A stretch of DNA of 64,000 nt from Vermamoeba vermiformis. Lineage: Eukaryota. Location: positions 248,001-312,000 of the forward strand of contig JBEWZL010000166.1 in the NCBI GenBank assembly GCA_045837725.1, written 5' to 3'. A model generated the notes under the pieces. That model did not search any database and was not told where the DNA came from. It worked only from the letters and a program-made list of their open reading frames with translations. Position 1 is the first letter of the stretch, and each line of letters begins with the position of its first letter. Of this stretch, positions 1 to 46,558 are shown in pieces. Made by a program: the position numbers and the translations under genes.

Positions 1-1903
1 CAATCATCGCGCGGCCGAGGTGCCAATAATACACAGAGTACTAATGCACCTGCTGCTGGCAAGAAATTGAAGAACATTTCAGATTTCAACAGTGCTCGAT
101 CAGACACCAAAGCAGCAGCGGAGAAGCAAGAAGAGCTCACGAGCACCACTGTCCCCAGCGAGGACGCAGCAGACGACAGCGATGCCGTGTACTGCTTGAC
201 GTGCTGCGAGCCCATTGCCTTCTTCGCACTCGGACCGTGCAATCACCGCGATCTGTGCGACAAGTGCTCGCTGCGCATGCGCGAGTGCTACAAGGACAAC
301 ACGTGTCCGCTGTGCAAGAACGCGATTGAACAGGTGCTGTACACGCGCGACACGAGCAAGAAGTACGAGGAGTACGATGTGAAGCAGATGTGGTACGACG
401 ACCTGTTGAAGGCGTACTTTGAAGACGAGGCACACTACACCAAGACACTGACGCTGTGGGACTTTGTGTGTCCCGTGTGTCGCGAGCACAAGAGCAAGTT
501 CAACGGCCTGTTCGCGCTGCAGAAGCACATCAAGAGCGCGCACGAGCTGTACTACTGCGAGGTGTGTTTGAAGTACCGCAAAGTGTTCCTGCACGAACAG
601 AAGCTCTATTCCAAGCAAGAGCTGCCCAAGCACAAGCGCGAGGGTGACAGCGAACTCAAGCTCAAGCCGCACTCGTGGTGCGAGTACTGCAAGCAATATC
701 TGTTCGGCGAGGACGAGCTGTTCTACCACTGTCACGACAAGCACGAGACGTGTTTCTTGTGCGAGGGCAAGGGCATTCGCTGGCAGTACTTCCGCAACTA
801 CGATCACCTCGAGCGACACTTTGACGCGCGGCACCACCTCTGTCACGATCAGGAGTGTCTCGCGCGCAAATTCGTGGTGTTCGACTCGCCGATTGAACTG
901 CAGGCCCATCGCATCAGCGTGCACGGCAAGCAGATGAGCAAGCAGGAGCTGTTGCAGGCCAAGACACTGCAGGTCAATTGGAATGCCGGCACGAACACCA
1001 ATCAGAGCTCCGGGGCCAGTGCCGACGAGGGCTACGTGATGCACTTGAAGTTCGATGTCGGGGATGGTGCGCCGTCACCGAATGCCATCAAGTCCGCACT
1101 CGCCAGCAACGAGGCACCCAACAACAACAACAACAATAACAATAATAATAGTGACGGCAATGTGGCTGCCAATCTGTCGCGTGATGAGATTGCCAAGTAA
1201 GTACATACGAGCCATATATCACTGACACTCGATTGACACGTGTCACAGACGCAACAAGGCCGTCATCTCCGCCATGAAAGCCTATTTAGGCAATGAGGCC
1301 AAATTCACGCAGTTCCGCAATGTTTCGGCGCAGTTCCGACAGCGTCAACTGAGCACCGATCAGTACTGGCAAGAATTCATTTCCATATTTGGCAAAGACC
1401 CAACCGGCCTCGATCTCTTTGAAGCCCTGACTGAACTGTTGCCCGACACTGACGCAGACCTCCGTGCGACACTTTTGACACTTGTCGCGACTGCTCGTCT
1501 CGACCAGGGCCCGTCACGTGTGGACTCGCGCCAATTTCCTTCTTTGGCAGGCAATGCACGTGACGCACAACAAGTCTCGCTGTCAGCTAATTATAGCACA
1601 CTGCTGCGTCCCTCGGCACCCCCCTCGCGCGAAGAATTCCCCGCCCTGGCCCCGTCCCGTGCAGCGAGTGCCAGCACACGTGGCAGTGCCCTGCACCAAC
1701 ACCAGTACTTCCAGCAACACCCCTCGCTGCTGCCCAACTTCTACGCGCCCAGGAGTGCTGGCAACGCACCGAACTCTGCCGCGCAGCAATCCAACAATAA
1801 TCCCGCTGGCACCAATGCCGCGGTGAATAATCCCGCTCCAGCCAATCAGCAGCAAGGTGGCAAGAAGAAGAAGAAACAAGTGCAAGTGCTCAGCTGGGGA
1901 TAG
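1..1903 (+). CDS. ZNF598: ZNF598/Hel2-like RING E3 ubiquitin ligase (ribosome quality control), 5'-truncated by the window edge
   Basis: Frame is open from base 1. RING (CLTC...CNHRDLCDKC...CPLC) is followed by C2H2 fingers (CPVC..H..H, CEVC, HSWCEYC, HHLCHDQEC). GT-AG intron 1197-1248 joins in frame to the 1274-1903 ORF, which has FPSL/FPAL motifs and a basic C-terminus. Confidence 0.92.
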
Positions 1904-2196
1904 GACTGCTGCACATGGCATTGTAATATAGTAAATCTCGTCCTATCGATCTGTAGTGCTGCTGTTCGATCACGTGATTGGCTTGAGAGTCCAAATATGG
2001 TCATGTCACGTGTCCGTGAGAAATCTATTTTCCGCCTGGCCAGTGACACGATTATCTGTTTGTTATTCCCTTGTACATAGTGAGAGCACCGTCCTTGCGA
2101 CTCAAGTAGTAGTCTTGCGTCAAGTGTAGTTCAGTGAATCAGATCTGTGACGTCATCACGCAATAATTGAAAGAGGCTGAGTGCAGATCGAGCAAA

Positions 2197-3935
2197 ATGA
2201 TTTGGGAGACAATACGAACCATATACCCCTTTGATTTATTTATGGTGCTGCTGATGGTGTGGGCTACGGTACGTCATTATTAATAATAAAATAATTCAAA
2301 TAATTGTCAAAAAATATCAAAATAAATGTTCGCTGAATGCACCGCACAGATACAACTCGCAGGGCTGTTCCCCTCGCTGCAGTACTGGCCTGCACTGCGC
2401 GTGACGTACATTCTGCCACCGCTGCCCGAAGACACGGCACATCTGACGGACAAGCCAGGCAAGAAGAGCGACACTAGCAAGTCGAAGGACTCGATGGTGG
2501 TGCGGTACGGCAAGGTGAGTGCCATTGCCTTATTTGGTCACTGCAGACCCGCTCACCGTTGACAGATCACAGCGTACGAATTGACACGCGTGGACAAGGG
2601 CGGACTGTTCGGACTGATCTTCACGGGCAAGTCACTTACCAAATATGGCAATGAACCGTACTGACCAGCTCTCTAGTCACGCAGGGTCTATTTTTAGGTT
2701 TGGCGTTTGTGTGGGCATTGCACCAACTGCCCGAGCCCTTCAGATTACTCCGCTCTGCTGTCACACCCGTGCTCGTGGTGGCAGCTGTCACGTGCTTGTA
2801 CGTGCTGGCATCCATTGCACTGCTCGGCGACTCCACCACCTCCTACAAGTGGCAGCTGAGTGCTATTTTTGGCATTGTGTTTGGCAGTCTAGCCTTTGCA
2901 TTTCTGCTCGAGAACACCGACGAGCTGTTAGATATTCCGCTCTACCAGGGCCTCGATGAGGAGTTCACGCGGAGATTCAATCTCCCACTGTTGCCGGGCG
3001 AAGATGACGATGACACCACCATGTTTGACAGACGTCAATCCTTGACACGTGTCATTCTCGCACTCGTGACAGGTCTGCTGGCATTTTGTCACTTCTTCAC
3101 CTCTGTGCGCCGTGCTGTGCATCACCATCGATTGGTGCACTCGGAATTTCACGGAAAGTTCTTCAAGTACGTTCTTGTCTTACCTTTCCAAGTGACACGC
3201 ACTGACAGGTGTCAAACAGAGGTCTCGAATATCTCTATCTCGCCCTGGTGCCACTGCTCATCGTGCTCTGGTTCCGTGCGCCGACTGAATTCATCACGGA
3301 GTCTTTGCACTTGTAAGTCACTTGCCTAATTTGGAAATACTCGTGCTCAATCCCTCTGCAGGGACAGGACAGTAGATGACACGTGTCATGCGTGGCTCAG
3401 CAGCAGCAAGCTCGGCATGGTGCTGTGTCGCACGATCACGTGGACAGGACTCGGCGCACGTGACTTGTACCACACGGTGCGGTGGTGGGTGCAGGGCAGT
3501 GTGGTGGCACTGGCGTGGCTGTTGTTCCGCCCCCTGCTCAGCGCGTACACTCATCGCGTGGCAGCCGTGATGCGCGGGCTGTTGCTGGTGCATCAGCTGT
3601 ACGGTGCTAAAAATAGCAGCTCGGTGCACACGCTGATGCAACAAGAGGCGCTGAGTGTGATGAAGGGTCTGGGCGTGGTGTGCGTGGAGCTCAGTGCGCT
3701 GCCACTGCTGCTGACGTGGCACTGGCACTATGCCGGACACTGGCTGGTCGACTATCTCGCCGTGATCTCGCTGCTGGCACACTGGGTGACACTGCTGCTG
3801 ACCTTCATCACGCTGGCACTCAGCGACACCGATGCCACCAGACCTGCCTTTTTTGACACGTTGCTCGCGTGGTGGGATCGGCGCAGTGCCACCACTCCGC
3901 GCAACAACAAGAAACTCCGCAGCAAAAAGAAGTAG
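2197..3935 (+). CDS. TMEM161-family multi-pass membrane protein
   Basis: Six exons splice in frame, including a probable GC-AG intron at 2627-2676. Many hydrophobic helices. Segments LTRVILALVTGLLAFCHFFTSVRRAVHH and VRWWVQGSVVALAWLLFRPLLSAY resemble TMEM161 (recognised from memory). Confidence 0.6.
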
Positions 3936-3996
3936 TGATGTTGTGCACTAAATTTAGTAAATAACGCAATCTTTGTACAAATAAGGCAAGAGCTAA

Positions 3997-5082
<1,086 letters not shown>

Positions 5083-5107
5083 TCACCATTTGTTGCAGCC
5101 CTGGCCA

Positions 5108-7701
5108 ATGAACAGCACAATTGCGTACCGCGACAGTACACAGCACAGCGAAGACGATGCAGCACATGTCTCGAAGAGGGCGCGACATCACTTTCACTAC
5201 GAGCCACTGACTGGCGAGCAGATCGAGCAGCTGAAACGTCGCTTGAATGCGCTGCTGTTCGTGCCGCACGGTGAGATCGATGACACGCGCTACGAGAAGC
5301 TGTATTCACTGCTATTGCGGTACATTCAGAGCGGCGAGGTCGTGTTGAAGCAGTTCATTCAAGTCGGTGGGATCGAGATTGTTTGTGTGAGTAATAATAA
5401 TATTGCAATAATTTATCGATTAAACACCGCAAATTAATATATTACTAAATGCGGCACTAATGTCTGAAATGATGTAACTAAATGTTCGAACCAGCAAGCA
5501 GCGCGTCATCAACACCTCGAGCTGCAAGCAGTGGCCATTCGACTCGTGGGGGCTGTGGGTGCCACCATGTTCATGAACGATTGGCCCACGTGTCTGCACG
5601 TCACACTCGCAGAATTGAGTGCCACCACACCGGGCGAACCACTCGTGCTCGATGCGGTGCTGCGCGCTTGGACTAGCTTGGCTGCAAATGATGCAATCAC
5701 GTGGTCTGAAGAGCGATCACGTGACTTGGTGGCACTCGTGTCACACGCTTGGCAACACGCGAGTCACTTTGTAAGTGTCACGTGTCACTCAGCACAGCTT
5801 TTGACACTCGATGTAGGTGGCCAGCAGCGCCGTCAAATTGTTGCACAGACTCATCGTTCATGAACGAGTTGTTCCGCAGCATGTCGTGGATGAAATCAAA
5901 ACTCAAGTCACGTGGCAGTGCCAACACACGAGCGGAGATTTCAAGTTGATTGGTGCAATCCTCGATCTGTTTGCAGCCCTGGTAGATCACGCGCAGGGCT
6001 GTGTGCTATTGTCACGTGATCGCTTGTTGTGTGACACAGTGACACGTGTCATCGCGTGTCAAGAACTGTTCAATGACACGCACATCAACACGCGGCTGTT
6101 AGAGCTGATCGATGCGGTGACACGTTTCAATCAGCATGCCTTATTTGGTAATGACAGCAGTGATGTCTCCAACACAGACCAATGTAAGTGTCAAACTGTC
6201 ACCTTGTCTGTCAACTCACGTGTCATACACAGTTGTAATGTGGCTGGAGCCAATTTTAGCACCACTTAACGACTCATCACGTGACATTCGCTCAAAAGAA
6301 TTCGAATTCGCCGTGCGATTGCTATCACACGTCAATTTCCCTGCAAACACTCGCGCTGGGCAGTGGCACGTGCAACAGTGTCGGCGGTGTTACAGTCACG
6401 TGACCACTGACCACCACTGGACCTTCCTAATTTGTAGTAATCTGCTTCATCACGTGCGCAAGGACCAGCTGCATTTGATCGAGGTACGCAAATGACACCT
6501 GTCACGCAGCGTTCACTAACCGTTCGCAGAGTACTGAACTCTGGGAACAACTCCACAGCTACCTCACTGATCACGTGATTGAAAGTCAGTCACGTGCACT
6601 GCGACTGATCGAGAAGAACAAGCGAATGATATTGCAACTAATCAGCTTGCTGGCACAGAAGCCAAATATAGACATGTCCACTCACGTCACCGCTGTGCTG
6701 ACGTATTTGACAGGCCAATCACGTGACAGTGTGACACTACCCACACAAGTGACACTGGTCTGCAATTCAGTGCAGTGTCTGACACAATTGATGTCTCGCA
6801 AAGTACTCGATGTGACAGGTGTCACTGTGAAGACGTTGACTGACACGTGTCAACTGGGATTGTTGCACCGAACGTGGGAAATTCGTGAAACATTTCTGCG
6901 ATTCATAGCGGCACTCCTGATGCAGAATCACGTGACTTGCCTTTCACTGAAACACGTGATTGTTGATAAGTTACACGATCCAGAGCCATTTGTAGGAGTG
7001 GCCGCACTGGAGGTATTTAAAGGTCTGACACGTGATCAGTGGCGTGAGTGGAGTGAGCACGTGATCACTGCACTGCCCGCATGTCTCAATCACGAGGACT
7101 CCGTGGTGCGAGTGTAAGTTTGACACGCCGTGACACTAGAACACAACTGACCAATCATTTAGCGCCACGTGGCACGTGATGACATCGTGGCACCAATCAG
7201 GAGCGAGTGCACTGCTCTTAGAGCGCTGTCGTGCGGATCACGTCTTGTCACTGCAACAGCACGTGACAGCAGCGTGTCAAGACGAGGACTGGGAGGTGCG
7301 TCAATCAGCCCTCGAATGGTGTCAGGCACTGGTCGCGCACGGTGAGTGGCAGGCAGTGTTTGACCTCGAGGCAGATGCAGTGCTGCAGCGCGCAGTAAGT
7401 CCCAATCACATCACTATGCTCGCAGCACCTATATACTCAGCACGCGCCTCTACAGACCAGCGATCCCATCAGACTAGTGCGCTTGAGTGCCTACAGAGCA
7501 CTGCACGTCTTGTTCAAACAGCTGCAGACCACACCTCTCGCACGAGCGCACATGTTGTTGCAAGAGCTGCGCGAGACAGACTGGGCCCGCGTCATGTCCG
7601 ATCAAGAGCCGCATGCAGTGTATCATGAGGACGACGATGTGTTCCCCCTCGAGCCAGATCTGACCACACACGACACGAATCCACTCGATTGTCCGTTCTA
7701 G
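5108..7701 (+). CDS. BRAT1-like ARM/HEAT-repeat protein
   Basis: Exons splice in frame. HEAT-type motifs (WEIRETFL, DPEPFV, HEDSVVRV, DEDWEVRQSALE). Acidic C-terminal tail ending LDCPF is reminiscent of the BRAT1 terminal DCY. Confidence 0.65.
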
Positions 7702-7839
7702 TGTCGCTGAGTGTAGCTGCTGAGTGTAAATAGTTCATGTACAAGCTGCAACTTTATTATATAATTTTTTACATTGTAGTCACGCGACTCACAAGCAGCT
7801 AATGACGGACAAGAGGTCCCTATTGATAGTAGTAGTGGT

Positions 7840-9240
7840 TTAATAGAAGCCTCTGCGACGGGTGTGACGGTCAAAAGTGATGTTGAACTTGTCAATCATT
7901 TCATTCATCGAGTTCGAGGTCTTGGTGATGCTCGCCAAGTACGTCACCAACAACGCGTCGTTGTATTCCTAGGGGCGGGGGGTGAGTTGAATAATCAACG
8001 ATAGCAATACAAGTTAATAGAGGACTTACCGACAAGAACTCGTTGTTGAAGTTGGCGGACTCAATGGCAGGCAAGAGATTGACCAGCGAGGAGAGACGGC
8101 GCAGCACTGACTGATCGGCGGGCAGTTTGCCAGCCTTGACGGCCTCGAGGTAGCTGACGATGCTCTTGATGCGAATGTTCAACATCTTGATCGCGTTGTG
8201 CATCGAGGACAAGTGACTGGTCACTGCGAGAATAGAAGAGTGACGGTGAGAATCATCGTGTGACACGTGTCAAACAGTGACTTACACATTGATTGACTGC
8301 CAGCACTGCCCACACGTGCCACGTGATCGACAGCAATGCGCTCAGCTTCACCAGTCTCGATCTTGTACTGCACTTTGGCGAATCTGCGGGGGGCAAGTGG
8401 TGAGTATAGTGCTCATATTAGTACTGATATTGAGTATTGTAAGCAATCATGGGTCAGATCTGGTACCTTAAAGTGGGTTCGTCCTTGATGACCTTCAATT
8501 CAGTTTCATAGACGACAATAGGGAGCTCTCGTCTGTCAGCAGAGGGCACTGGATCGAGCAACAAAAAGAGCGGGCTTTCGTTGTATTCCATCAACTACAA
8601 AGCAGATTGAACGTCAGATCAAGACTCAAACTGCAATGATAAATTGAAATTGTAGTAATTAGATATATATCACCAAATTTCGTTAATTGGTTTTGTTCGG
8701 CATGAAAAATAATTATGAATATTTTTCGGTATTTTTCTAAGGCTGTTAACAACGTACTTGTTTGTGGATGTCAAGGTCAGAGACTTGAGCCTCTTTGCCA
8801 GTTGAGTACCAACCCAAAAACTCCAAATCAGGGAAGACCTTTCGGACTGAGAAATAGGGGATGAGATTTAGAAAATTATTAAATTTAATAATCGCATTAT
8901 CCAAAGCGTTAATTTCAAGAAAAATTGCAGCAATAATACTAAGTAATTAATACTTACATTGTTCTTTCTTAGTCTTCAAATACTCAGTATCAATAATGAG
9001 TTGACCATTGACATCAGTGCAAATTAATTCAAACGAGTTGTATACGTGCACAATACGACCAGTCTGTTGTCCAAGCAATGCACCAAATATTCTGTGCTTA
9101 GCGGTCTTAGGATTGTTCACTCGTTCGCGAGTAAAGTGGTCTGAGATGTTGATGACCACCAAAGCGTGCAAGAAAACATCAACGGCTCCGCTGCCGCTTT
9201 CTTCAGTAATATTATTGTCTTTCTTGGCTGGTGTGCTCAT
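7840..9240 (-). CDS. COPS6: COP9 signalosome subunit 6 (MPN- domain)
   Basis: LHALVVINISDHFTR, GALLGQQTGR, FLGWYSTG, AIKMLNIRI, EYNDALLVTYLA. Five GT-AG introns. Confidence 0.95.
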
Positions 9241-9543
9241 TGTGCCTGTAATATTATTATTAATTTTAGTAATTCAAATATTTTTCTTGGTCTTGATGCA
9301 CAAAATTTCCAGTGGTGAGCTACAAGTTGCGCATTATTATTGGAATAGAATAATATAATACCTCTTGTTGTATTGATCGAATGCTGCGAATAAGAACTGT
9401 TCAAATTCAGCAGTTGCACTTTATCTCAACCAGGGCTCAGGACCTTACTAAGATCTGCTAATTTTTTTGTGGTGAAAAGAACGACTTTTACTATAATACA
9501 TATGTACATGAATGGCTGGATCAATATTATCAACTCTTTGTGC

Positions 9544-11145
9544 TCAACTACTTGCAGTGTAGATCTGGATTTGGCCTGAAATGTCCGCGACAGCAACGCT
9601 TGTGTCTAGAGCAGTTATCAGCACGACTACGCATTAATTCTATATTAATCAACACATACCATCGCGTGTGAGAGCCAGGGCAGTGATGGCGAACTCACTC
9701 GTCTTGTACTTGAGGGCTGGCAGTACACCACCTGACTGCGGATGCACATTCTCTTTGTCTTTGTACATGTCCCAAATGTGCTGTAGATAGTATGATTAGT
9801 GTTAATGCGATATGTTCGACAGCTATAACTCCTTACAATCTCTCCCGCAGCACTGCCAGCAAGCAGTTGGGTAGCCGCGTGATTGAAAGTGGGTGTGACG
9901 CGGTGGTGACTCTGTTCCAGGCCCGTGTAGCTCTTCACACCGCGCTGATCGTGCACATTCCACAGCTTGAAGGACTCGCGCGAGGACGTCACTACGAATA
10001 GCCCATCAGGGGTCACTTGTGCTGAGTAAGTGTTGTTCTGTTTCACGCATGGAGAGTTAGCCAAATAAGGCAATGTCACGTGACGCATACCGAGTGCAGA
10101 GTGAATGGCAGTTCGTACTGCTGCGTCTTCTTATTGTACACTTGACGCACGGCGCGCTGTTCAGTCGCTGCTGCACGCGTCTCCACACGCAGCAGGGGCG
10201 GATTGAGTTGTGGTGCTGAAATTTCATCGTCGCAACTCGTGTCCATTGCATCGAACTCGCTGAGCCAGCTCGAGGCCCAGCCAGTCGCGCGCGTGTCACG
10301 TGATGCAGCACGTGCTTGAACAGGCACATCGCCCCACACACGATCAGTCTCGTCCTCTGATGATAGATGTCAGTGATCAAGCACTTAAATTCAGTGAACG
10401 ACGTACCGGGCACGTGATTGTTGGCAGGGTCGAGTGCCATGAACTCTTGGTGACACTTGAGCATGCGCATGTCCCACAGACACATGTGCTCGTCGTGCGC
10501 AGTCAAGAAGTGGAACTGTTGTTCAGGCAAGAACTGCACACTGTGCGCGACACTAAGGGTCTCAAAGTGCCACAGCGCAGTGTTCTGTGCGTGGTGAAAC
10601 AGACGCAAAGTCTTGTCGAGACTGCACGACAGCGTCACGCCCCTCAGATTGGTGCTGCAGTGACTGACGTAGCTGTCGTGACCAACAAACTGTTGCAGTG
10701 TGGTGCCCTTGCATAGTGTCAATATTCGGACATTTGATGATTGCAACTTACGCGTTCAATGTCCCACATCCGCAAGCTCGTGTCATCGCTGCAAGACACC
10801 GCTTGGGTGTTCTTTGACACCAGTTCTAAACTGTTCATTTGGTTAAATAAGAGCTTGTATTACGTATATATCAACTGCTTACTAATTGATGCTCTTTTGA
10901 TGCCCTAACAATGATTTTGGAGCACGATCGGATCTGTTTTTTAAAGAATACACTAGTATTCTGCCCTTATCATCCGAAGCTATTATTGTGTTGTCGTTTA
11001 CGAATTTTACGTTCGTAATACCGCCTTTGTTTTGAAATACAATCGGTTCTTTGGAAAATATTCGATCCCAAGTTATCGTGCGCAGCGGCCAACTGCCCAA
11101 TTGATGGTTGTAATTGCTGAGTGCTCGCCTTGATAGTTTATTCAT
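9544..11145 (-). CDS. WD40-repeat protein
   Basis: Repeated GH...WD motifs (LLGHQKSIN, SCSDDTSLRMWD, FVGHDSYV, LWDMR, LWNV, IWD). Exons splice in frame to TGA at 9544. Confidence 0.85.
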
Positions 11146-11356
11146 CGCGACGAGTGGTCATTAATTTGTGTGCAGATATTTAAATCCCAATTGGTTTTTT
11201 TTGGCGCGATTATTTGGCGGGTCTCGATAAAGTGACACCCTGTTTATTTAGGGGGGAGATAACACTATAACAACAGATGGTTATAGACGCCACATTCATC
11301 CAAGCACTGCGCATCAACTCTCGAACTATACACAATTTATTCGCAAAGAATGTACA

Positions 11357-13096
11357 TTATTGTTGCTGTTGGTGCGGCGCAGGGTTCGTAAATACAAAGC
11401 TCTGATTGACATTGCCGCGCCCTCGTCCAGCAGGGGGCTGCATATTGGGCGGATAAGGTGCGTAGTAGTTGATGTGCGTCGGATACGGCACTGCATTGGG
11501 ACCATAGCCGGGCATTGGTGCGACGAACTGTGGTGCATAGGGTGCTGCAACATAGGACTGCGGCCAGGGTGCGGGGTAGGGCATGGGGTAGTAGGGCCCT
11601 GGCGGCTGTGGCACGTACGGAGGTGTCTGAGTGACAGGTGTCATAGGGGCACTCTCACCACTCATGTGTTTGGCTCGTTTGCGCGGTCGTTTCTTCTCGT
11701 CATTCGGCGCCGCGTGTTCGCCACTCTGTTGCGGCTTTTTCCGCTTGCTGAATAGTGAATGACGCGTGTCAAAACCGGGTCTGCACAGCCATTCAGTGAA
11801 TATACGTACCTCTTGGCCAATCGCTTGGCTTCAGCCTCTTTCTCGTCGTCCGAGAACTCGAGCTCGTCTTCAGGCACCTCCTCGTCGTGTTCATTCGAGG
11901 CGTCGTAGCCCTTGCTGTACACTTCGCGCCACGAGCTGAGCACTTTGCTGAACTTGCTCACGTAGTACACTTTGGTGCCCTTGGGTGGAGGTGGTCGTTT
12001 GACAGGTGCCACTTGACTGGGCTTTTTGAAGTTGTGTTCTTTTTTGACAGGCGTGTCATTTGCAGTACTTGGTGCGACTTCATTTGCAGGTGTCAAAGTG
12101 TCATCAGCAGTGACAGCACTCTCGTTGACAGCACTGGGAGTGACATGTTGCTCGGGCTGGTCACTGGTTGACATGTTGACAGTGCTGTCAGGCGCGGAAT
12201 TATTCTCGCCGTTCACTGAATCAAGTGTCTGAGGGGCCTCTGTTGCAGTCACGTGATTGCCAGCACTCTCGTTGGTAGGTGTCTCTTGTGCGGGTTCCTC
12301 TTTGACACGTGTCACGAGTGGTGTCATGCGCACAGAGTAGAGCGGATTGTCCACGCGTCCAAATGTCTCGTGCACCTGTCACGTGATCAGTGTCATCGTT
12401 CATGAACCAAGTCAGCGCGGTACTCACTCGACCCAGCACTGTGCGGTCCTCCAAACAGAGCACGGAGTCGATGTCGACAGTAGAGGTGTCCATAGTAGAG
12501 CGGATTACGATGAACTCGTCGACGTAGTGCGTCACTTCACCCAGCAGCGCGATCTGATCGTTGACATCGATTGACTCGTACACGGGCTCTTCTGGCGGTA
12601 GTTCCTGGCATCAACAACTTAATATTTATATAGATATAAATGCGCGTACCTTGAGCTCATTGGCGCTGCGAATAGGTTTGTTGTCAGCTGGATCTTCGTC
12701 CTCATCCAGATCGTGCATTTTTGATTTTTTATCTTCGAGACCCAAGTGCATTGAACTCGAGCTAGACTCGTCGTCACTATCATCTGATGTAGTACTGCTC
12801 GAGTCATCGTTTTTTTCTGAATTTTCTACAATTACTGCTGAATTTTTTTGTTCCTGATCACGATCCAACGTCTGATCCACCGATTCAATAGTGGTGTTTA
12901 CGATCGGATCGGCTACTTGTATATTGTTGGTGGGGTTTTGTTCGGTGGATTGAACAGGATCTGCGTCTAGCTTTACTTCCGCAGCATTCGTTGGCTCTGT
13001 TCTCGGCTGCGGATCCACTGCCTCAACAACAGTAGGCGGCACTATATTACTGCTGACACTACTAGAGTCAGTCGGTGCAGCACTCTGGTCCTCCAT
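11357..13096 (-). CDS. NAF1: H/ACA RNP assembly factor NAF1
   Basis: Gar1/Naf1 domain (DIDSVLCLEDRTVLGRVHETFGRVDNPLYSVR) and the NAF1 signature GYDASNEHDEEVPEDELEFSDDEKEAE. Ser/Asp-rich N-terminus and Pro/Tyr-rich C-terminus. Confidence 0.93.
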
Positions 13097-34394: not shown

Positions 34395-36877
34395 TTATTT
34401 GTTTCCTAATTCAGCCAACAAATTGTCCAATCGAACACTCGCTAAAGATTTTAAAGTTAGCAACACATCGACAGTAGCAATATGACGAACATACCTCGTG
34501 AAGGTGTCTGTTGGTGATTGGTAGGCTCCATCATTCTCTTCGCACGTTGTTTGGCCAAGTCACTAGCAATGTTGGCGAGTGAAAATATCGTGCCGTCACT
34601 GCTGCCTTGTTTCTTGCGCTCTTCTTCACGGGCTTTGACCTTCTCATCGATCGATTGAGGCTGAACACGAGACAGTTAGTACTTTACAACCATCAAAAAA
34701 CACGTCACTTACACCGTCAGTCTTGCGCAGCGACACGCCGCGCTTGAGTTGGTCAACAATGTTCACTTGAGGGCTGGGTGGTGCGACCTTGACAGGGGCA
34801 GCTTTAGGAGCACCACCGCCAGTCTTGGGCTTGCGATTGATCTTCAAGCCACCTGCTGAGGCCTTGGCCATGGGTGGTGGAGGTGGTGGGGGTGGAGGAG
34901 GACCACCGCCAGTCATTGGTGGCGGAGGTGGCGTGTCTGGCACTTGACACGTGTCAGTAATGGCACTAAAAAATATCTCAAGTACTTACCGCTCACAGTG
35001 ACAGGAGCCTCGTACTGTGGCTCAGAGTCCTCTTGTTGGTTCTCGTACTTGGCCAGTTCAGCTTCGAGTTCACTGACCAGGGCCTCAGCATTGCTGGCAC
35101 GCTCTTCAGCCTCGCGCAATCGTTCTTCGAGTTCATTCAGCGCTGCTCTGTCACCGCGCGGTGTCTCTGTGTTCTTCTGCACGAGTTCACGCTCCAACTG
35201 CGTCACACGTCGCTGCAGTTCTTGTGATTTGTTCTGCTCGGCATTCAATCGACCCTCTTGCTCTTCAATCTTCACTTGTGCTAACTTGATCTTGCGCTCC
35301 CACTCACTCGAAGCACTCTCTTTTTCAGTGACACGTGCAGTCAGCGTCGAGACTTCTTTCTTGAACTGTTCGCGCTCGTTCTTCAAAGCCTCAGCCACTG
35401 TGCGCAGTTTGTGGGTCAAGTCAGTCACTGTGGCATCGGCTTGTGCAGCACGCGTGGTCTCTTTGGTGAGGGACATTTCTAGCTGTTGGATCCTGTGTTT
35501 GACACATCAGTTCAAGCACTACTTTGACACGTGTCACAGTACTCACTTGGTGTCCATGTCGCGGTGCTGTGCCACCACTGAAGGTGATCTCTCGCGTGCC
35601 TTGGCCTGCAGCTTCTCGAGCTGTTCTTGCAACGCTTTGTTCTCTTGCACCATCTTGGCATTCTCTTGCGTCAGTTGGGCCACTTTAGCCTCGAGTGCTC
35701 CGGTGTTTCTGATCGCTTGACTCGTGCTGCGAGTGCGTTGGTCGAGCTTTTCTTTGGCCTCGTCCAACTCTTTCTTCACATTGCGCGTCACAGCTGCGCA
35801 GATGATCGATTAGTTTCGTCCGTATTTCCTAATTTGGTAATATGTAGGTCACGTTACCAATCAATTGGTGCATCTTGTCCTGCAGGGTGGTAGTGAAGTT
35901 GGTCTGTTCAGTCAATTTGGCTTCAATGGACTCGGCTTTGGTTTGATACAATTGCGACTTTGAAAATCAGATCCGATTAGTCTTTTAAAGCCTAGTGCGC
36001 GAGTAGGTGTATTATAGGTACCTTAGTCTGCCACTCAACGAGTTGTTCTTCGCATTCTGCTACACGTGCCTCGCGTTGTTGAAGTTGCTGGCGCAGAGCT
36101 GTTACGACTGCTGGGTCGATGCCAGAAGCAGCTTTAGCGCTCTAATGGCAATTAATATGAATTAATATTATATGCTACGTATGAAATAGCTACGTTGGGA
36201 ATACGCAATATGGATCGCACTTAACAAATTTGTAGCGGAATCACAAAATCATGGGCTTGAATCAGCTTGAGAAAAAACTCCCAGAATAATATTAAATAAA
36301 TACTAGTCTATAATTATAAAGCAAAAAAAACATTAAGATGCAGAAAAATCTTCGAATTGCAAGGCACCAAGATACTCGCAGTATCAGTATCTTTTTGCTG
36401 CTATATAAGCAATAATAAGCTTACCTGTTCGATCTCTTTTGCTTTTTGAAGCTCGCGTTCCTTCTTTATGGCTTGGATCAGCTGCAGTAATTTATTTTCC
36501 AGCTGATCTGCTCGTTCTCGTTCTTCAAGGAACTTGCGTTGCAATTGTTCTTGCGTCTAATAATATATCCGTGTTATTACTGCGAGCTAATTCACCAATT
36601 TGAGCACACAAGGCGAATCTTACCTCCTTGGTCGCTTTGCGCTCTTCTTTAACTGCCTCTACTAATCTAATTAATTTCGCTTGTTGTTCAGTGACCTCGT
36701 GTTCTGCATTTCTTGCACGAGTTTCAGCGGCATTAAGCTTGCTGAGCAAGGCCGTGACTTCAAACTGCATCCAGAAGTTAGTCCACACATCTCGCGCGAC
36801 ATAGAAACCAATCGTTGCAGTGATGCGTATTAATATAGTATACATACAGATTCGTCAGCGTACGTGTCCGCTTCCAT
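34395..36877 (-). CDS. Coiled-coil + polyproline + WH2-like actin regulator (shootin-like architecture)
   Basis: Long coiled coil, then PPPPPMTGGGPPPPPPPPPPM, then IVDQLKRGVSLRKT (WH2-like). Exons splice in frame. Confidence 0.75.
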
Positions 36878-37287: not shown

Positions 37288-39628
37288 ATGCATCACGTTA
37301 ATGCCACACGCGAAGTAACGGCGCAAGACCAAGTCGATCTTTGTCATGTGCGAACCGATCAGATCTTGCAGCTGTTGGACCGCGTCAAATCAACTGAAAT
37401 TACCGACAAGCGATATGACGTATCAGCGGACACGAGTGAATTAAAGACCACTTTAGAACGCGTCAAAAAAGTGTTAGCATTCGGAGCAATTAAACTCATC
37501 GACGGCAGTTTAGATGTGTTTTGCATAGCGGCTATTCAAGCGACACTAGACCAATTAAAGAAGATATTATTGCAACAAGAAGCATGCGTGACATTCAGCT
37601 CATGGTGCGACACCAAAATTAAGCTTTACAACCTCGATCTGCAGCTTTATTTTCAACTCGATCAAGTCGTAGCTTTGTTCTCGAGCAATAATGCATTTGA
37701 TGCTACAGAATCATTTACTGATATTAAGAATACTAAAATGTGGCTAGAACTCTTTGGACGACAGGTAAAGGCGAATATTTGAAAATATTCATTTCTGTCG
37801 TCGATCTACCTCGTAAATTTCAATTAATTGATCGGGTTAATCGAATAATAATAGACATTAGTATTAATATATTCATCTAACAATTATTTTATGACAGGTT
37901 CGATTAGTTCCGTGTAACGAATTTTTAACTAAATTTGTTGCTTATTTGAATGCGGACGACAAGCTTTACAATTATTCATCCGAAGAGTTAGGCTTCATAG
38001 CGCACTTTTTAGGTATATTTAAAAATTATTTTATCAACCTGTCAACCGCATCTGACGGCCTAATACTGATTTTCGTTTCAGATTTCACGCGCGACGATTT
38101 GATTAGTCCGTATAAAGTCCATATATTCACCCGATGGTTTGGACCATTGCCCAACTGCTTTGATAGACTTTTAGAGTCACTACGTACAGGGTAAGCAATT
38201 TTCATGAACGTTTGTACTCGATCGACTCTAAGAATCTTTGCAACGACTTTTTTGCGGCTCTAACACGTAGTTTAATATAGATACTTGACGGGATTTATGT
38301 CTGCTCACGAGGCTAACTGGATGTTACGAAAGAAGCCCTCAGGCACCTTTTTAATCAGATTCAGCAAGTCTCAAGCCGGATGTTTCGCTGTAACATTTGT
38401 GGATTCGAAGTGTCAAGTCAAGCATTCGCTGTTATATTCACTCACCGATCAATGGGGACTCACGCTGAAAAACCCTCCAAAAGGTAAAAACTTTACAACT
38501 TTATTACCGGATGTTATTTTCAGATCTGTTTTGCGCGATTCATTGCTATCTAATTTTAAATGCCCGAAGACCGATTGCAACAACTTGCAATGTATTCGTG
38601 TTGAATTTACCCTTTTCTGGTAATTTGAATTTTTCGTTACACATCGGGCAATAATCGATTTTCCGTGCAATGACGTCAGATCTGCTTTCAATATACTCCT
38701 GAATGTTGCAATGATTGGTCATATTAATACTGACGCTTAATGTAGTGTACAAAACACTCTCCGAGTTCGTATTGGCCCACGCGAACAATTTGAGCAGTCC
38801 TCTCGGCAACAAGTGGATGTCGCAACTCGACAAGCCCAAGACCTCGCCAATATTAGCTGGCAGTCAGGGCCCTAGTCGGTCAACGGGCGAGGATCCCATG
38901 GAGAGTCCTGATTCGCCGCCTGAAAGTCACGTGACCTCACTCCGCACGAGCAATCCAAAAATCAAGCGTGACACTTCGCAGCATTATTTTCCGCTCGGTG
39001 CAGCGAACAACAACGGAGCAGTGGTGGACAACAATGGACCTGTGCCTGCCATGGGCGGCGAGAAGAACATGATCCACGCGATGCAGAACATGGCGCAGAA
39101 CAGCTCTTCAATGCCCATGCCGTACAAAGTGTCCAACAACATGGCGCAGAACATGTACACGCAGAGCAACTACTCGTCAGCTCAGAGCGATGACTTGCTT
39201 GCAGATCCAGCTTTGACACGTGTCATTCGTGACAGCACCTTCACACCGAGCAGCATCGCCAATTACCAACAGATCAATCAAGCGCTGCTCAACTATCAAG
39301 GCTCGCCTGACCAATATCAAATGTACCACGCGGACACTTCGCAACAAGCGCCAGCAGTTTTCCGCCGCACAACTCAGCGCGCAGAACTTGCTCATGCCGC
39401 ACCGACCAGTAGACAAGTCCCCGAGTCCGAACACGAGCACGAGCAATGGTCATCAAGTCCCCCAAGCCCATCGAGCCCTCGTGCACCGTGTGCATGGATC
39501 ACCCGCGCACCACGCTGTTCTTGGAGTGCGCGCATCGAGCGTGTTGCAAAGAGTGCAGCAGAAAAGTGACATTTTGTCCGGTGTGTCGACAGCCCATCAC
39601 GCGCGTGGTAGATATTTACACACCGTAA
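37288..39628 (+). CDS. SH2 + C-terminal RING protein (Dictyostelium CblA-like architecture); two apparent +1 frameshifts before the RING
   Basis: EF-hand-like DFTRDDLIS...FTRWFGP, then a STAT-type SH2 (GFMSAHEANWMLRKKPSGTFLIRFSKSQAGCFAVTFV), then RING CTVC...CAHRACCKEC...CPVCRQPI. Confidence 0.8.
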
Positions 39629-40425: not shown

Positions 40426-42352
40426 ATGACGGACAGTAATTTAAAGAGAAGTGCAGCAACACGCTGGGTGAATGGATGTATACTTAGGGTACGCATATTT
40501 AGCATTATTAAGTCTCCAGAATATCTAGTAACTCAAGTTTCTCGTGCAATCCGAGATCGCCTTGTTGTTCATGAATAAGAGCTCATCTCTGGCAAGTAAC
40601 TAACCTCTCTACCACTAGAATGGCTCTAGAATGTACTATCAAGCGTGTTCATTTGAAGGCACAGAATACCACGTCTTTGATCCTGTTTTGCTTAACGGAG
40701 AAGATGCGCTACTGCCTCTCGGACGAATAATCAGTACGTACTATAGCGAGGATGATAGTATGTTATATATATTAAACACAATGCAGGTATGTGGGAGTGT
40801 GGTAAGAAGAAGTTTGTGGACATTGAATGGTTTTACAGATCCAGCGATGTAATCAGTACGTGTCATTAATCTCGCTTAACCTCGCCAATATACTTACATA
40901 TACCATCCAGAGACCATACAATACTTCTACCCCGAGGAGCTTGAAGAGTTCTTGACAGCCAATCCTGGATTTGAAGAGCTGGTGTTGAAGCGCGAGGTGC
41001 AAGTCGACGAACTGACCCGCGCCAATGATCCGAGCAGCGACAGCGCTAGTCGCAACAACACAGTGCCTGGCAGTCCTGTTGAGGCCGCGTCTAGCGAATC
41101 AGATTTGATTGATCTCAATGCCAGCACGGAGCAGTTCAACATCGTCACGAACAGCGCGGTGGTGGATCTGACGAGTGAGGACGACGAACACAAGAAGAAG
41201 CGAGGACGAGGACGACCGCGCAGCATGTCTAACTCGCGAGCATCAAATGGCAGCACACCTGCAGCCACGTCAAGTGTCAATGGTCACGACAGTCCTCCGC
41301 GCAACAGAAAGAAGCGCGGACCAAACTCTAAGAACAAAACAGAGGAGTTGGCTAGTCGATTCAACGGCACGATTAGTGACCCCAAAATCATGCTCGAGTA
41401 CGTCAAACAAGCTGCAGCCAATGAGGTGTTTGCGTCTAGTCATGCGGACAGCAATTATCCCTCGACACTCGCGCGAAAATGTGTCGTGGAGCACGTGACA
41501 CGTGTCCCAGACAACAAAGTGTTCGAGAAGCAGCCCTCGCATTATTTCTATCGCAAGTTCTTCGATCAAACCACGTGTGAGCTGCGTGATGTGGAAGAAT
41601 ACAAAAAGTTAGCGCCGACTGAAGTGGCACGCAAAGCTTACAAGACTGCAAATATGGTTTACAACAGACCTGGAGCGAGCAATGGAGCTGAGGCACAGCC
41701 AGTGCCACGGTTCACTGCGACTGGCGAGACCGCGAGTGACATGGACAGCGATGAAATTATGAACACACCGCAGGACAATCACGCCAAGTCTGGTCCGCCA
41801 GTCAAGCGAAGGAAGTTGGACAACAATCGCGAGAGTGTGCAGCACGCGAAGGGCGGAAAGACTGGCGCGAATGGAGTGCACGAGCTGCAGCTCAACGACA
41901 ATCACAATGTAAATACCACAACACAAGCCGTTGCAGCTAATTCGAACACGAATCGTGCGCTGAAGAATTACTTGAGCTACGACAAGAGCGAGTCGAGTGA
42001 AGGCGAGTCAGTGAAGACAGCTGCTGGCCCGTCAAAGGGTCGCGGTCGCAAGCGCAAGGCCCCAGAGCTGACCAACCCCGAGTACATGGAGAGCTTGAGA
42101 ATTGAATACAACAACAGCACGACCGTCACTAATGCGAGCAACAACACGAACATCGCACCGCTGAAACAACCGACACACACGGCGACCATAGACTTGATAT
42201 TGGATGACGACTATCAGGGCTCAAGTGAGGTGCAGATGTTAGAACGGGCCGTGGAGAAAGTGCATGAGGCCGTGGATCTGAGTCGGCACGCGTTAGAAGC
42301 GTTCAAAAAGCAGATTGCAGTGCGCATTCGTGCTTTAGAAGAACTGAGTTAG
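40426..42352 (+). CDS. BAH-domain chromatin protein with an AT-hook-like motif and a C-terminal coiled coil
   Basis: Spliced YHVFDPVLL...GRIISMWE...VDIEWFYRSSD, and later NEVFAS...LARKCVV...YFYRKFFD. KKKRGRGRPR lies between the two parts. Confidence 0.75.
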
Positions 42353-43104: not shown

Positions 43105-43998
43105 TTACAAGTCCAATCCCATTTGAGCCTTGAGGGCCAAAGCCACCTCGCTCAAAGTGTCAAAATCAGTCGACACGCTGACTGGACGCCACTCCTCGAG
43201 CTCAGCCATCTGATCTCTCTTCTTCTTGATGATGCCAATGACTGAGTCCTCGCCCAGAGGAAGGCGAAGAGGAGGTTTGGCGGACTCGATGACCTTGTGA
43301 ATGGCTGCAGCGGCTTTCCAAGGGTTGCCAGGCTCGTGACCTTTGAGACTTTGACCGATCTGGGCCAGGAACCCAACACTAGGAGCGTACTCGGGATGTT
43401 TCACTGCAGGTACACCCTCTTCGAAGGCACGCTCAACGAAAGCAGACTTAAACGAGCCTGGCTCAACGATGGTGACGCGCACATTGAAGGCAGCGACTTC
43501 TTTGGACAATGCTTCCGAGAGTCCTTCAATGGCCCACTTGCTGGCATGATAGAGCGAGAATCCAGGGTGCGCTGTTTGACCACCGACGGAGCTGATTTGA
43601 ATGATGTGGCCGCTCTTCTGTTGTCGCATGATTGGCAGCACTTTTCTCGTCATGTTGATCACGCCGAAGAGATTGGTGTCCATCTGTTGGTGGATCTGCT
43701 GTTCAGTGACCTCTTCCAGGGCACCGAATTGACCGTAGCCAGCGTTGTTGATCAGCACGTCAATGCGACCAAACTTCTGCACCGTCTTCTCAACTGCAGC
43801 GCTCACTGATTTGAGGTCAGTGACATCGAGTGCCAACGCTAGAGCAGTGCTAGGGAAGTCCTTCTCGAAGTTTGCGACCTTGGATACATCTCGCGCAGTG
43901 ACGACGACTTTCTGATTGGCTTTGAGGAAATATTCCGCGAATGAACGACCCAAACCGGTGGAGCAGCCTGTGATGAGGTAGACCTTGGAAGCAGACAT
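43105..43998 (-). CDS. Short-chain dehydrogenase/reductase (classical SDR), intronless
   Basis: TGCSTGLG, LDVT, NNAGYG, ISS, YHASK, VEPG. Confidence 0.95.
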   Translation of the reverse strand: MSASKVYLITGCSTGLGRSFAEYFLKANQKVVVTARDVSKVANFEKDFPSTALALALDVTDLKSVSAAVEKTVQKFGRIDVLINNAGYGQFGALEEVTEQQIHQQMDTNLFGVINMTRKVLPIMRQQKSGHIIQISSVGGQTAHPGFSLYHASKWAIEGLSEALSKEVAAFNVRVTIVEPGSFKSAFVERAFEEGVPAVKHPEYAPSVGFLAQIGQSLKGHEPGNPWKAAAAIHKVIESAKPPLRLPLGEDSVIGIIKKKRDQMAELEEWRPVSVSTDFDTLSEVALALKAQMGLDL

Positions 43999-44587
43999 TT
44001 CGCAATGATTAGTAGTTGATGGTGTTATTTGTTGTTGTTTGTAGTGATATTGGTTAACAACGTCTTCGGCCAGGGCCTTAAATGTGTTAGGGGCGGAGAA
44101 ATGGCGAATTAATTTTAACTGCCGAACTTCCATTTGTCCGCATCACTTCGTAACTCGTAACGGTAGATTTCGCAGCAATTTTTTTGTACGACCGCCTATC
44201 CAAACAGGTTGCAACGGATGCAGGAGTCCAAGTCCGTGGCATCAACGAAACTGAGTAAGCTCGAAATTAGCTGTTAAGGCGTCAAATTAAATCTTTCGGG
44301 TACAACGAAATGAATAGCTTGAGTGGAGATGAATGACGCTCAATTGAGCTTCCAATCTGGGCCCAGATCCAAACAAGTAGATGGGTCAAGCCTTACCAGC
44401 AATTATTTAACGCTAGAACGCTGAAGCCGTAGGGACAAACGCTGCTTGGCAATACCTTGACGCACATTACTCTGCAAACCGGCTCAAAGAAAGAAATTTA
44501 AGTTGAATCATCGAGCGGATGTTAGTTCGGATGTATGGATCAATTGTAAGACGTAAAGTTCGTTTACTTACGATACTATAAGCAACA

Positions 44588-46558
44588 CTATTCGTTAATC
44601 AAAACGGGCTTGGGCTTGCGTTTTCGACTCTCAGTGACCGCGAGCACGAGATCAATGATGAGATTGAGGAACATGAGCGAGGCAGCAATGAGATACGTCT
44701 CTTGATAGCACGCAATGCCGTAGCACTGGTGACTCGGGTCATTGGGCTGCACGTGTGAGTCGTACAACTTGCCAGCCAAGATGCCTAGCCCAGCTGAACT
44801 GATGCCCTGCAAGATACATACCATTAGCACTGATCGATACATCCATAAAAGTAGTGCTTACAGAAGCAGTGATAGCACCGATGTTCGAGCCGTGATATTT
44901 GTCGCCAAAGTAATAGTTGAGCAACACGTTGTACGCGGGCCATGAACCTGTGCCACAAATGACACGTGTCAGAATACAGTACCTTTGAAGGGTTACATTA
45001 GTGTACCTCCGTAAGAGATGGCAATGGTAATAGTGCAGATCAGTAGTGTCAAAAAGTGATCGAAGAAAGCTAGCGCGATGAATGACAGCATGATGATGAT
45101 GTGCGGCACGAGAATGGACAAGGCTAGCGGCATTTTCTTTTGACTACTCACGACAGTTAAGTTCATTCTATGCAATAATATAGTGTACTAAATAGGACTT
45201 ACATGAGATCGATGATACCTCCCATAATAAGTCGTCCTAATAAATTAGCCAAGGAAAGAATGGTCACTAAAGTCGGTGCGGCCAATTCCGTGATTTTCCA
45301 AGCCTTATGCGCGGATCCAACAGTTGTAATGAAGAGATAACCAACCTAATATTATTGTAGGTTAATATTAAGCCATTTATGTAGATCTGGTACTTACGCC
45401 AACAGTGAATGAAAACGAGAAAAACATGCAGTAAAACTGCGGTGAAACTAACAATTTTAGACCTCCAACTACGCCATATAATCCTACGCGACCAGCACTA
45501 GGTACTTCAGTATTATTTGAAGCGTCTGTAGGGCTCGACAGTAACGGCTTGGATTCGCTGTCCTCAGTCCGTAACGAGACCTTAAAATGGTTAGGAGTGG
45601 TTAATATAATACAACTACATACTGGTTGCATAAAAACAGCGGCAAGTACTGCCAAGGAACTGAGAACAATTGCCATCGTCAAGAAAAACCCGATCAGATT
45701 CGCTCCGTCCTTGGTTTTAAAAAACAAATCGTAAATAATGCTTATTACGGCAGCACTTATTCCAAATCCACCGAATACAGCACCACTGACCTAAAGAAGG
45801 GTTAAGTACTTAATCGTTCGAATGCACAAGATCTTACTTTGCCTCGATGTTTTGTCGCCCAGTTCTTAGTATTTGTGACGACAGCACTAAATACGCAGCA
45901 GGATGTACCAAGAGCTAGTCATTAAATGAGCTTTAAATATTTTCGTAATGAGATCCATTTACGTACTGACTGTAGCATAAAACAAACCGACGATAATAGG
46001 TGATTGAGTAATAAGACCAAGAAGTGACGCGCGCAATAAGAAAAATCCACCTATTTGATTTGATTTGAGTTAGTTTGACGTAGGTCTTGTTGGTCGATCT
46101 GGATCTTACCGAACAAAAGCAATGCTCCAACACCTGTCGTTGGTCTTGGACCAAGCTTATCGTAAAAAAAACCAATCGGAACCGAGAAGATGAACCTACA
46201 ATCATTTTGAATTAGCTTCTCCAAGCGAGTTTACAACTAAAAGTTTACAACTACACGGATGCAGAGAAAATAATATTGTTACTTACGATCCCAAATTGCC
46301 AATAGAGCTAACAGTATTAATATTTGTTTCGGTGTAGTTTAACTGCTTTTTCAATTCGACCGAGTACGCACCAAAAGCATACGTTACGCCTAAACAAACC
46401 ATCATCATTATTCATTGTAATATTACAATATAATAAAATATAATATCATTATAGGATATTTATATACTATCATTAGTCTCGTATCACTTACCCATGCCGA
46501 GAGTGAGCAAAACACCCGTGAGTAGCGAGATCACTCGCCAAGCTGTACCAGTGGCCAT
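44588..46558 (-). CDS. MFS transporter, nodulin-like/Mch1 (NFD4) family
   Basis: YAFGAYSVELKKQLNY, NTKNWATKHRGK, GFGISAA, YFGDKYHGSN, CYGIACYQET. Many TM segments. Confidence 0.85.

Follow-up and report, generated by a model that had tools for sequence, protein, structure and literature searches.

DNA words that are functional and recur in the coding sequence of many genes, at a cost to codon choice, are known from bacteria in the form of Chi sites and DNA uptake sequences. Such words have an orientation or a link to transformation and RecBCD, for which no counterpart is known in the present case, and their likeness to the sequence described below is a resemblance only. A closer system is the highly iterated palindrome HIP1 (GCGATCGC) of cyanobacteria which, like the alternate HIPs, is an exact palindrome iterated far above expectation in coding as well as non-coding DNA, without shared flanks and with the exact form far commoner than its neighbors (PMC4390886, in the part of that article accessible to us). 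Two classes of binding site are also comparable. The E-box or G-box of Myc/Max, USF, TFE, Cbf1, and the plant G-box factors has the core CACGTG, and the sites of the TALE (three-amino-acid loop extension) homeodomain proteins MEIS, PKNOX, and TGIF (TGACAGGTGTCA, TGACAGCTGTCA) have the 12-bp architecture TGACA-N2-TGTCA. A string of the TGACAGGTGTCA type is printed as the human MEIS3 motif obtained by systematic evolution of ligands by exponential enrichment (PMC5449588), and a solved complex shows TGACAGCTGTCA occupied by two homeodomains of TGIF1 (PMC6158717), each according to the accessible part of the article. The present analysis concerns a stretch of 64,000 nucleotides from the eukaryote Vermamoeba vermiformis (assembly GCA_045837725.1, contig JBEWZL010000166.1, positions 248,001 to 312,000 of the forward strand), referred to here as the window, and the 12-bp palindrome TGACACGTGTCA that is scattered through its genes. 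This 12-mer was found to be one of two CACGTG-centered palindrome families, which a preliminary description of the same DNA had overlooked. The reading that we favor, tentatively and at a probability of about 0.45, is that both palindromes are under selection, in some of the genes, as recognition sequences for DNA-binding proteins acting in pairs.

The excess of TGACACGTGTCA was confirmed as real and robust. All 13 exact copies of the preliminary description were recovered at their coordinates, against 0.01 expected from 100 dinucleotide shuffles, none of which reached 13. With up to one mismatch allowed, 22 sites were present against 0.32 expected. The nine one-mismatch copies (about 0.3–0.7 expected) comprise the seven already described and two that had been missed, TGTCACGTGTCA at 5776 and TGACACGTTTCA at 6118. 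From Markov models of the window's own words, 0.004 copies would be expected at order 0, rising to 0.07 and 0.52 at orders 4 and 5; orders of 6 and above are uninformative because sub-words of the motif itself feed the model. A local order-3 model in 4-kb blocks gave 0.08, 0.66, and 5.8 for the exact, one-mismatch, and two-mismatch forms, of which 13, 9, and 8 were observed. Synonymous codons were also shuffled in 30 open reading frames (ORFs; 18,501 nt), which we picked from 75 ORFs of at least 120 amino acids for their Pfam hits, RNA support, or length, and some of which extend slightly into introns. Seven copies were present in this set against 0.27 expected, with a maximum of 2 in 300 shuffles. 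Markov and codon-preserving nulls had been proposed earlier as a check, and the excess persists under the codon shuffle and up to order 5. As control DNA, 80 metagenome loci were retrieved with a short-chain dehydrogenase (SDR) protein from the window as query (33–51% identity, mostly bacterial-type relatives, and thus more distant than the relatives at 78–98% that are known as proteins), and their 814,250 bases contained no copy. TGACACGTGTCA thus resembles the HIPs in being an exact short palindrome many-fold above Markov expectation. It differs from HIP1 in its host, a eukaryote with spliceosomal introns, in its length of 12 rather than 8 bp, and in its lower and very patchy density.

Alignment of the 13 copies with 40 nt of flank showed that only the 12 motif columns are invariant (mean column identity 39%). 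A dispersed repeat or miniature inverted-repeat transposable element is thereby ruled out, in agreement with the earlier view that the copies have no shared flanks and do not form a mobile element. A tandem-repeat origin was rejected likewise, as no tandem array in the window overlaps a copy. A protein motif is ruled out by the intronic copies, the use of two reading frames, and the survival of the excess after synonymous shuffling, and the signal accordingly resides at the nucleic-acid level, as had been proposed. Amino-acid composition does contribute to the count of the core, since the CACGTG mean after synonymous shuffling of the 18.5 kb of ORFs (15.9 ± 3.1) exceeds the base-composition expectation; the observed number was 45, a value reached in none of the 300 shuffles. 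An artifact of composition, codon usage, protein motif, or dispersed repeat can therefore practically be dismissed.

No hexamer of the window is more over-represented than CACGTG (80 observed against 22.5 expected), and its extensions head the lists of 7- and 8-mers. The second palindrome, RTCACGTGAY, was found 15 times against 0.27 expected, and its fullest form, AGTCACGTGACT, in two exact and five one-mismatch copies against 0.11. Among the 160 half-site flanks of CACGTG, G stands at −5 in 85, and the leading triplets are TGA (34), AGT (15), and TGT (12). TGA on both flanks was observed at 13 sites against 3.6 expected from the half-site frequencies, whereas mixed TGA and RT flanks on one core were observed at 2 sites against 11.9. 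Since the two flank types pair with themselves and rarely mix, two separate homodimeric readers are indicated. The spacing of the first family is also fixed: TGACA-N2-TGTCA has 18 sites (center CG in 13, GG in 4, CC in 1), and the inverted half-sites at spacers of 0, 1, and 3–8 bp have 0–2 each. A palindrome of fixed geometry, self-pairing flanks, and a sharp consensus are together the signature of recognition by a symmetric dimer, and the occurrence of the asymmetric variant in both orientations (see below) agrees with this. In addition, three CACGTG-N-CACGTG doublets with a 7-bp offset were present against 0.00 expected (none in 100 shuffles), and these may be slippage products or paired sites.

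Both families have the symmetrically flanked CACGTG core of an E-box for basic helix-loop-helix (bHLH)-zipper proteins. The flank in RTCACGTGAY is one that we take to be the classic flank of USF/TFE/Cbf1-type sites, the T at −4 and A at +4 presumably being those of the same sites. The first family also has the layout of a TALE dimer site, with two inverted TGACA half-sites 2 bp apart, and its commonest variant in the window (five copies) is letter-identical to the MEIS3 motif as printed in the accessible part of the article (PMC5449588). There are differences from both classes. The main form in the window is CG-centered, which gives the CACGTG E-box, the GC center of TGIF occurs in none of the 18 sites, and TALE sites are known as regulatory elements and not as words iterated through gene bodies. 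Unlike E-boxes or G-boxes, the window sites lie throughout exons and introns and not near promoters, number up to 27 per gene, and have a consensus that is sharp to 12 bp.

The exact form of TGACACGTGTCA stands out sharply from its neighbors. Five of the nine one-mismatch copies alter the central C or G (TGACAGGTGTCA/TGACACCTGTCA) and one alters the outermost base. As the exact sequence is hardly accompanied by decayed copies, it is evidently maintained. A sharp peak would also be expected of a HIP1-like drive, i.e., of sequence-biased repair or gene conversion, possibly directed by a DNA methyltransferase, that pushes near-matches to the exact 12-mer while the sites themselves have no function. 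Elhai's model of HIP1, methyl-directed repair, is of this kind (PMC4390886, accessible part). We regard such a drive as unlikely. The deviations of TGACACGTGTCA are central and not biased outward, the opposite of the outer-base pattern that the accessible part of the same article gives for HIP1 (PMC4390886). None of the nine one-mismatch copies is the CpG-to-TpG/CpA product of TGACACGTGTCA, and CpG is not depleted in the window (3,391 CG dinucleotides, where base composition predicts about 3,260; observed/expected about 1), so that methylation-directed repair, offered in the preliminary description as one cause, finds no support. The only methyltransferase-like ORFs seen in the window are COQ5 and a weak Methyltransf_12/25 hit, neither of them a DNA methyltransferase family. 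Two non-mixing palindromes would moreover need two such processes, and we know of no eukaryotic repair system with 12-bp specificity.

The genes of the host have very short GT..AG introns, and spliced contigs from three public RNA runs skip segments of 49–163 nt. A raw RNA run compared with the stretch contained 0 reads from it. These contigs place the copies at 1234 and 8261 in introns and those at 3043 and 3377 in exons (Table 1). The copies at 6040, 6841, 12303, 14236, and 39214 lie in long ORFs and are probably exonic, and a well-formed predicted intron contains the copy at 31440. Both frames free of a TGA stop are represented among the seven exonic copies, five of which read (L/V)-T-R-V-x and two D-T-C-(H/Q); RNA contigs and codon reading hence bear out the earlier statement that copies fall in exons and introns and are read as xTRV and DTCx. 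All 13 exact copies were found at a local GC of at least 0.46, a level that about half of the window attains, which agrees with their reported location in the GC-richer gene bodies. Intron and exon statistics were restricted to positions 1–9.3 kb, where 12 introns are supported by RNA and 6 were predicted or read by eye; an automated intron predictor was dropped, because its 218 introns were too many and included only 8 of the 13 that RNA supports. Introns make up 1,283 nt or 13.8% of this DNA and hold 5 of its 11 exact or one-mismatch copies (P 0.011), whereas CACGTG cores are not enriched in them (4 of 41). The introns of positions 1–9300 are of two kinds. The very short ones (46–62 nt) have a moderately high GC content and carry GTAAGT together with CTGAC/CTCAC words resembling branch points; the longer ones (81–163 nt) are very AT-rich.

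The intron enrichment raises the alternative of an RNA-level element, acting as a branch-point or 3′ splice-site context in short introns or through pairing of two self-complementary copies in one transcript. In the copies at 1234, 3203, and 31440, YTGAC stands 13–15 nt before the 3′ splice site, the expected place of a branch point, and the TTGAC of the 1234 copy could serve as one. Several genes carry two or more copies, and the confinement of the copies to GC-richer, gene-holding DNA would also suit an RNA signal. We nevertheless consider this explanation highly improbable. Palindromy is unnecessary for an RNA signal, 7 of the 13 exact copies are exonic, the CACGTG cores as a whole do not favor introns, and the position within introns varies, being at the 5′ end in 5776, 8261, and 35525 and at the 3′ end in others. 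No Rfam family was matched in the window. The asymmetric variant TGACAGGTGTCA/TGACACCTGTCA occurs three times in one orientation and twice in the other relative to transcription (two of the gene strands being putative), which fits a reader of DNA and not of RNA. The branch-point-like placement appears to be opportunistic rather than causal.

The effect of the signal on coding sequence is visible at the codon level. Of the 25 His-Val pairs in 31 ORFs, 16 are spelled CAC-GTG, where codon usage predicts 8.6 (P 0.0025), and 22 of the 25 belong to ORFs of the first 14.5 kb. COQ5, whose closest named relatives are from animals, a chytrid, and an ichthyosporean (53–66% identity), contains three CACGTG cores, each on His-Val, and two of the His-Val pairs are conserved from animals to fungi. 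Both of its S-H-V-T stretches are written AGT-CAC-GTG-ACT, a perfect 12-bp palindrome, and this is a clear instance of codons chosen to suit a DNA word. The CACGTG cores of the HEAT-repeat gene (about 5.1–7.7 kb) are spread over the three codon phases and are read as H-V, (S/T)-R-x, and T-(W/C). From the codon-level excess of CACGTG and the spelling in COQ5 it follows that, where a peptide permits the word, the signal acts on the choice of its codons; it seems also to create such peptides in weakly constrained proteins. An overridden codon choice, as well as an excess in introns and in both usable frames of exons, would likewise be expected of a HIP1-like drive.

Table 1. Coordinates of the two palindrome families and of related CACGTG features in the window.
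Feature	Positions	Strand	Location or reading	Basis or remark
TGACACGTGTCA	1234..1245		Intron of ZNF598-like gene (+), ends 3 nt before 3′ splice site	Spliced RNA contigs skip 1197-1248, GT..AG
TGACACGTGTCA	3043..3054		Exon, read L-T-R-V-I	RNA contig pieces span 2676-3166
TGACACGTGTCA	3377..3388		Exon, read D-D-T-C-H	RNA contig pieces span 3362-3899
TGACACGTGTCA	6040..6051		Probable exon, HEAT-repeat gene, read V-T-R-V-I	Within ORF 5817-6269
TGACACGTGTCA	6841..6852		Probable exon, HEAT-repeat gene, read T-D-T-C-Q	Stretch aligns to relative P0246
TGACACGTGTCA	8261..8272		Intron of small, well-expressed minus-strand gene, 13 nt past 5′ splice site	RNA contigs skip 8224-8285, CT..AC
TGACACGTGTCA	12303..12314		Probable exon, Naf1/Gar1-like gene (-), read V-T-R-V-K	ORF 11662-12378 (-), weak Gar1/Naf1 hit
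TGACACGTGTCA	14236..14247		Probable exon, read V-T-R-V-M	ORF 13638-14450 (+); RNA contig over 13500-14200
TGACACGTGTCA	31440..31451		Predicted 53-nt intron 31402-31454 (+), ends 3 nt before CAG	GTAAGT...CAG; flanked by open frames of 49 and 98 codons
TGACACGTGTCA	34945..34956		Minus-strand coiled-coil-like gene, exon or possible 47-nt intron	ORF 34913-35506 (-); GTAAGT...TACTGAC...AG by eye
TGACACGTGTCA	35525..35536		Predicted 54-nt minus-strand intron 35493-35546, or exon	
TGACACGTGTCA	39214..39225		Probable exon, read L-T-R-V-I	ORF 38715-39569 (+), end encodes Cys-rich RING-like stretch (read by eye)
TGACACGTGTCA	44960..44971		Inside minus-strand gene upstream of SDR gene, exon or intron	
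Variant TGACAGGTGTCA	3203..3214	+	Intron 3167-3219	RNA-supported
Variant TGTCACGTGTCA	5776..5787	+	Directly past 5′ splice site (GTAAG-TGTCACGTGTCA)	RNA joint 5769 to 5817
Variant TGACACGTTTCA	6118..6129	+	Probable exon, read V-T-R-F	
Variant TGACACCTGTCA	6493..6504	+	Predicted intron 6484-6529	
Variant TGACAGGTGTCA	6813..6824	+	Exon, read V-T-G-V-T	LTGVT of relative P0246 compatible with same 12-mer
Variant TGACAGGTGTCA	11632..11643	+	Candidate minus-strand intron 11606-11658	
Variant TGACGCGTGTCA	11760..11771	+	Candidate minus-strand intron 11748-11809	
Variant TGACAGGTGTCA	33222..33233	+	Between AtuA-like exons	
Variant TGACACGTGTCC	41496..41507	+	BAH-domain ORF, read V-T-R-V-P	Part of CACGTG doublet
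RTCACGTGAY, 14 of 15 sites	1969..12387			Starts 1969, 4229, 4466, 5716, 6011, 6276, 6395, 6570, 6718, 6927, 10075, 10295, 12248, 12378
RTCACGTGAY, lone site beyond first 12.4 kb	38926..38935			GTCACGTGAC
AGTCACGTGACT	4228..4239	-	COQ5	Encodes conserved S-H-V-T
AGTCACGTGACT, second copy	4465..4476	-	COQ5	Again encodes S-H-V-T
CACGTG-N-CACGTG doublets	7166..7178; 8313..8325; 41492..41504			
Densest CACGTG stretch	5587..7265		23 of 27 HEAT-gene-region cores	Three codon phases; many TGACAC/GTGACA half-words

The distribution along the window is strongly patchy. The first 14.5 kb hold 50 of the 80 CACGTG cores (P about 3e-14) and 8 of the 13 exact copies of TGACACGTGTCA (P 0.003), the density of the latter being 1 per 1.8 kb there and 1 per 4.9 kb overall. 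The HEAT-repeat gene alone has 27 cores. No CACGTG was found in the FANCI region (about 14.6–19 kb), nor in the examined ORF segments of IMPDH, SDR, AtuA, and annexin, although their GC contents at third codon positions (GC3) overlap with those of site-bearing genes. GC3 does not account for the pattern: the first ZNF598 ORF has a GC3 of 0.77 and one core, whereas the HEAT ORFs have a GC3 of about 0.5 and 8–12 cores per kb. Because of this patchiness the genome-wide mutation bias suggested in the preliminary description fits poorly, and selected sites in a subset of genes are favored. A HIP1-like drive is similarly at odds with a patchy distribution that does not follow GC3.

Fission yeast CRE-type (cyclic AMP response element) sites offer a further comparison, as the factor bound there opens chromatin for meiotic breaks. 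By analogy the palindromes could mark, or result from, regional recombination activity, with GC-biased conversion raising the GC content around them and so producing domains rich in both sites and GC. The domain scale of the patchiness, with 1–14.5 kb and 31–45 kb rich in sites and 15–31 kb and 45–64 kb poor, would suit this explanation, as would the increase of site density with local GC. Gene by gene, GC3 is not predictive, as seen for ZNF598 and the HEAT-repeat gene, and motifs at recombination hotspots are expected by established theory to erode, not to accumulate. A recombination origin is thus very unlikely.

Relatives of the HEAT-repeat exon were few, two among 1.84 billion representative proteins, one of them being a fragment of 162 amino acids (P0246) that is 70% identical. 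Seven window sites are aligned with this peptide, which is compatible with the words at 6813, 6953, 7029, and 7058 and incompatible with those at 6720, 6841, and 6929. At 6841 it reads LVDVCQL, which cannot encode the 12-mer; since the alignment there is ungapped, the copy arose by substitutions and not by insertion. P0246 has H-V-T where the window has Q-V-T, and its His-Val excess (3 observed against 1.1 expected) was not significant. Site turnover would appear to be about equal to the protein's own rate, as far as a single short fragment with little power can tell. Turnover between relatives is also what a HIP1-like drive would produce, and such a drive would further suit the density of sites, which is highest in weakly conserved sequence such as this exon and the introns.

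The favored reading, selected dimer sites, can be put as follows. Selection would act on the DNA itself to preserve the families TGACACGTGTCA and (A)RTCACGTGAY(T), each serving a homodimeric protein of its own with sequence-specific binding. The reader of the first may be a bHLH or basic leucine zipper (bZIP) protein, or a TALE-homeodomain dimer on two TGACA half-sites two bases apart. The sites would lie within the transcribed parts of a subset of genes, as the intergenic spacers are short and AT-rich, and selection for them would outweigh the choice between synonymous codons and, where a protein is weakly constrained, also that of the amino acid. Binding might serve a transcriptional or chromatin program shared by the site-rich genes. 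The abundant chromatin-binding protein that the preliminary description named as one possible driver is thus retained in altered form, as predicted binding sites in a subset of genes in place of a genome-wide process. Several site-rich genes are of ribosome-biogenesis or translation type by weak Pfam hits, namely, a Naf1-like gene, a WD40 gene of the WDR3/Utp type, a Nop14-like acidic protein, and ZNF598. CACGTG is the Myc:Max site, and for holozoans it has been suggested that Myc controls genes of ribosome biogenesis (PMC2570694, accessible part). The link to such a regulon is only suggestive, as the hits are weak and COQ5, the BAH protein, and others carry sites too.

Several observations weigh against selected dimer sites. 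Transcription-factor sites rarely have a consensus as sharp as this over 12 bp, and the 27 cores of the 2.6-kb HEAT-repeat gene far exceed a normal regulatory need, the RNA contig depth of that gene being the lowest of its neighborhood. The AT-rich promoters, where factor sites are expected, are without sites: only 4 of the 80 cores lie at a local GC below 0.40, and the RNA-mapped copies of TGACACGTGTCA are about 0.9–1.8 kb from the 5′ ends of RNA contigs. No bHLH, bZIP, or homeobox gene was detected among the 50 window ORFs scanned against Pfam. Three of the seven aligned sites are impossible in P0246, and conservation is no better than that of the whole protein, on a fragment too short to give much power. 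Finally, the observed/expected ratio of CACGTG climbs with local GC, from 2.5 below 40% to 9.7 above 55%, so that a regional DNA-level process could also yield the pattern. It is the empty promoters, the overloaded and poorly expressed gene, the sharp consensus, and the lack of extra conservation that keep a HIP-like drive under consideration.

If the palindromes turn out to be E-box or TALE sites of the usual kind within a single regulon, the result would be a useful regulatory annotation and nothing beyond. A doubtful but broader possibility is a eukaryotic counterpart of HIP, in which exact 12-bp palindromes would be actively generated or maintained across the transcribed DNA of particular chromosomal domains, rewriting codons and amino acids. 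The agent would be either sequence-specific repair or conversion, or else an architectural DNA-binding protein, present in abundance, by which a class of genes is labeled (e.g., as "self" or as a chromatin domain). Should the pattern prove genome-wide, this would be an unusual eukaryote in which a DNA word rather than protein function visibly shapes coding sequence, with His-Val, Ser-Arg-Asp, Thr-Arg-Val, and Asp-Thr-Cys written into proteins to suit a palindrome. It would then provide a ready system for asking how much sequence space proteins yield to DNA-level signals, aid the identification of the protein that reads so sharp a 12-bp site, and test a eukaryotic parallel to HIP-like iteration, which has gone unexplained in cyanobacteria for decades.

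A literature search with the 12-mer, its 10-mer core, and the extended forms, most subscription journals lying outside its reach, returned no description of such iteration; the 12-mer string appeared only in an unrelated Ebola virus context. For over-represented CACGTG in exons and introns nothing relevant was present among the matches listed, and "highly iterated palindrome" combined with eukaryote led to cyanobacterial work only. Viral contigs with the 12-mer followed by CACGTG within 30 nt gave 22 single matches, none clustered, a result that is uninformative as the window itself matches once.

The locus was also detected in sequencing runs under at least six organism labels (30–76% of sampled words), with a small share in root and biofilm metatranscriptomes, and contigs from three such runs differ from the window by 1–5%. 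Several strains therefore exist, and the organism turns up in samples labeled as something else. Among the 40 of 166 strain differences listed, none falls inside the motif, a number without power.

Three neighboring loci also deserve mention. An intron-less SDR gene at 43105-44133 (-), which lacks CACGTG, has a few close relatives at 64–98% identity and otherwise bacterial-type oxidoreductases at about 45–52%, and is a candidate for horizontal acquisition on this similarity pattern. The AtuA family (acyclic terpene utilization) is mostly bacterial; its member here, at 32342-34354 (+), is split by introns, and its two large ORFs are free of CACGTG. Lastly, arrays of 15–18-nt units with a 90-nt super-unit at 60304-60666 and 62373-62629 (-) encode XYPPX-type Pro/Tyr/Gly repeats and adjoin an annexin-domain ORF at 61431-61799; the arrangement suggests annexins, perhaps from two tandem genes, whose N-terminal tails are long and repetitive.

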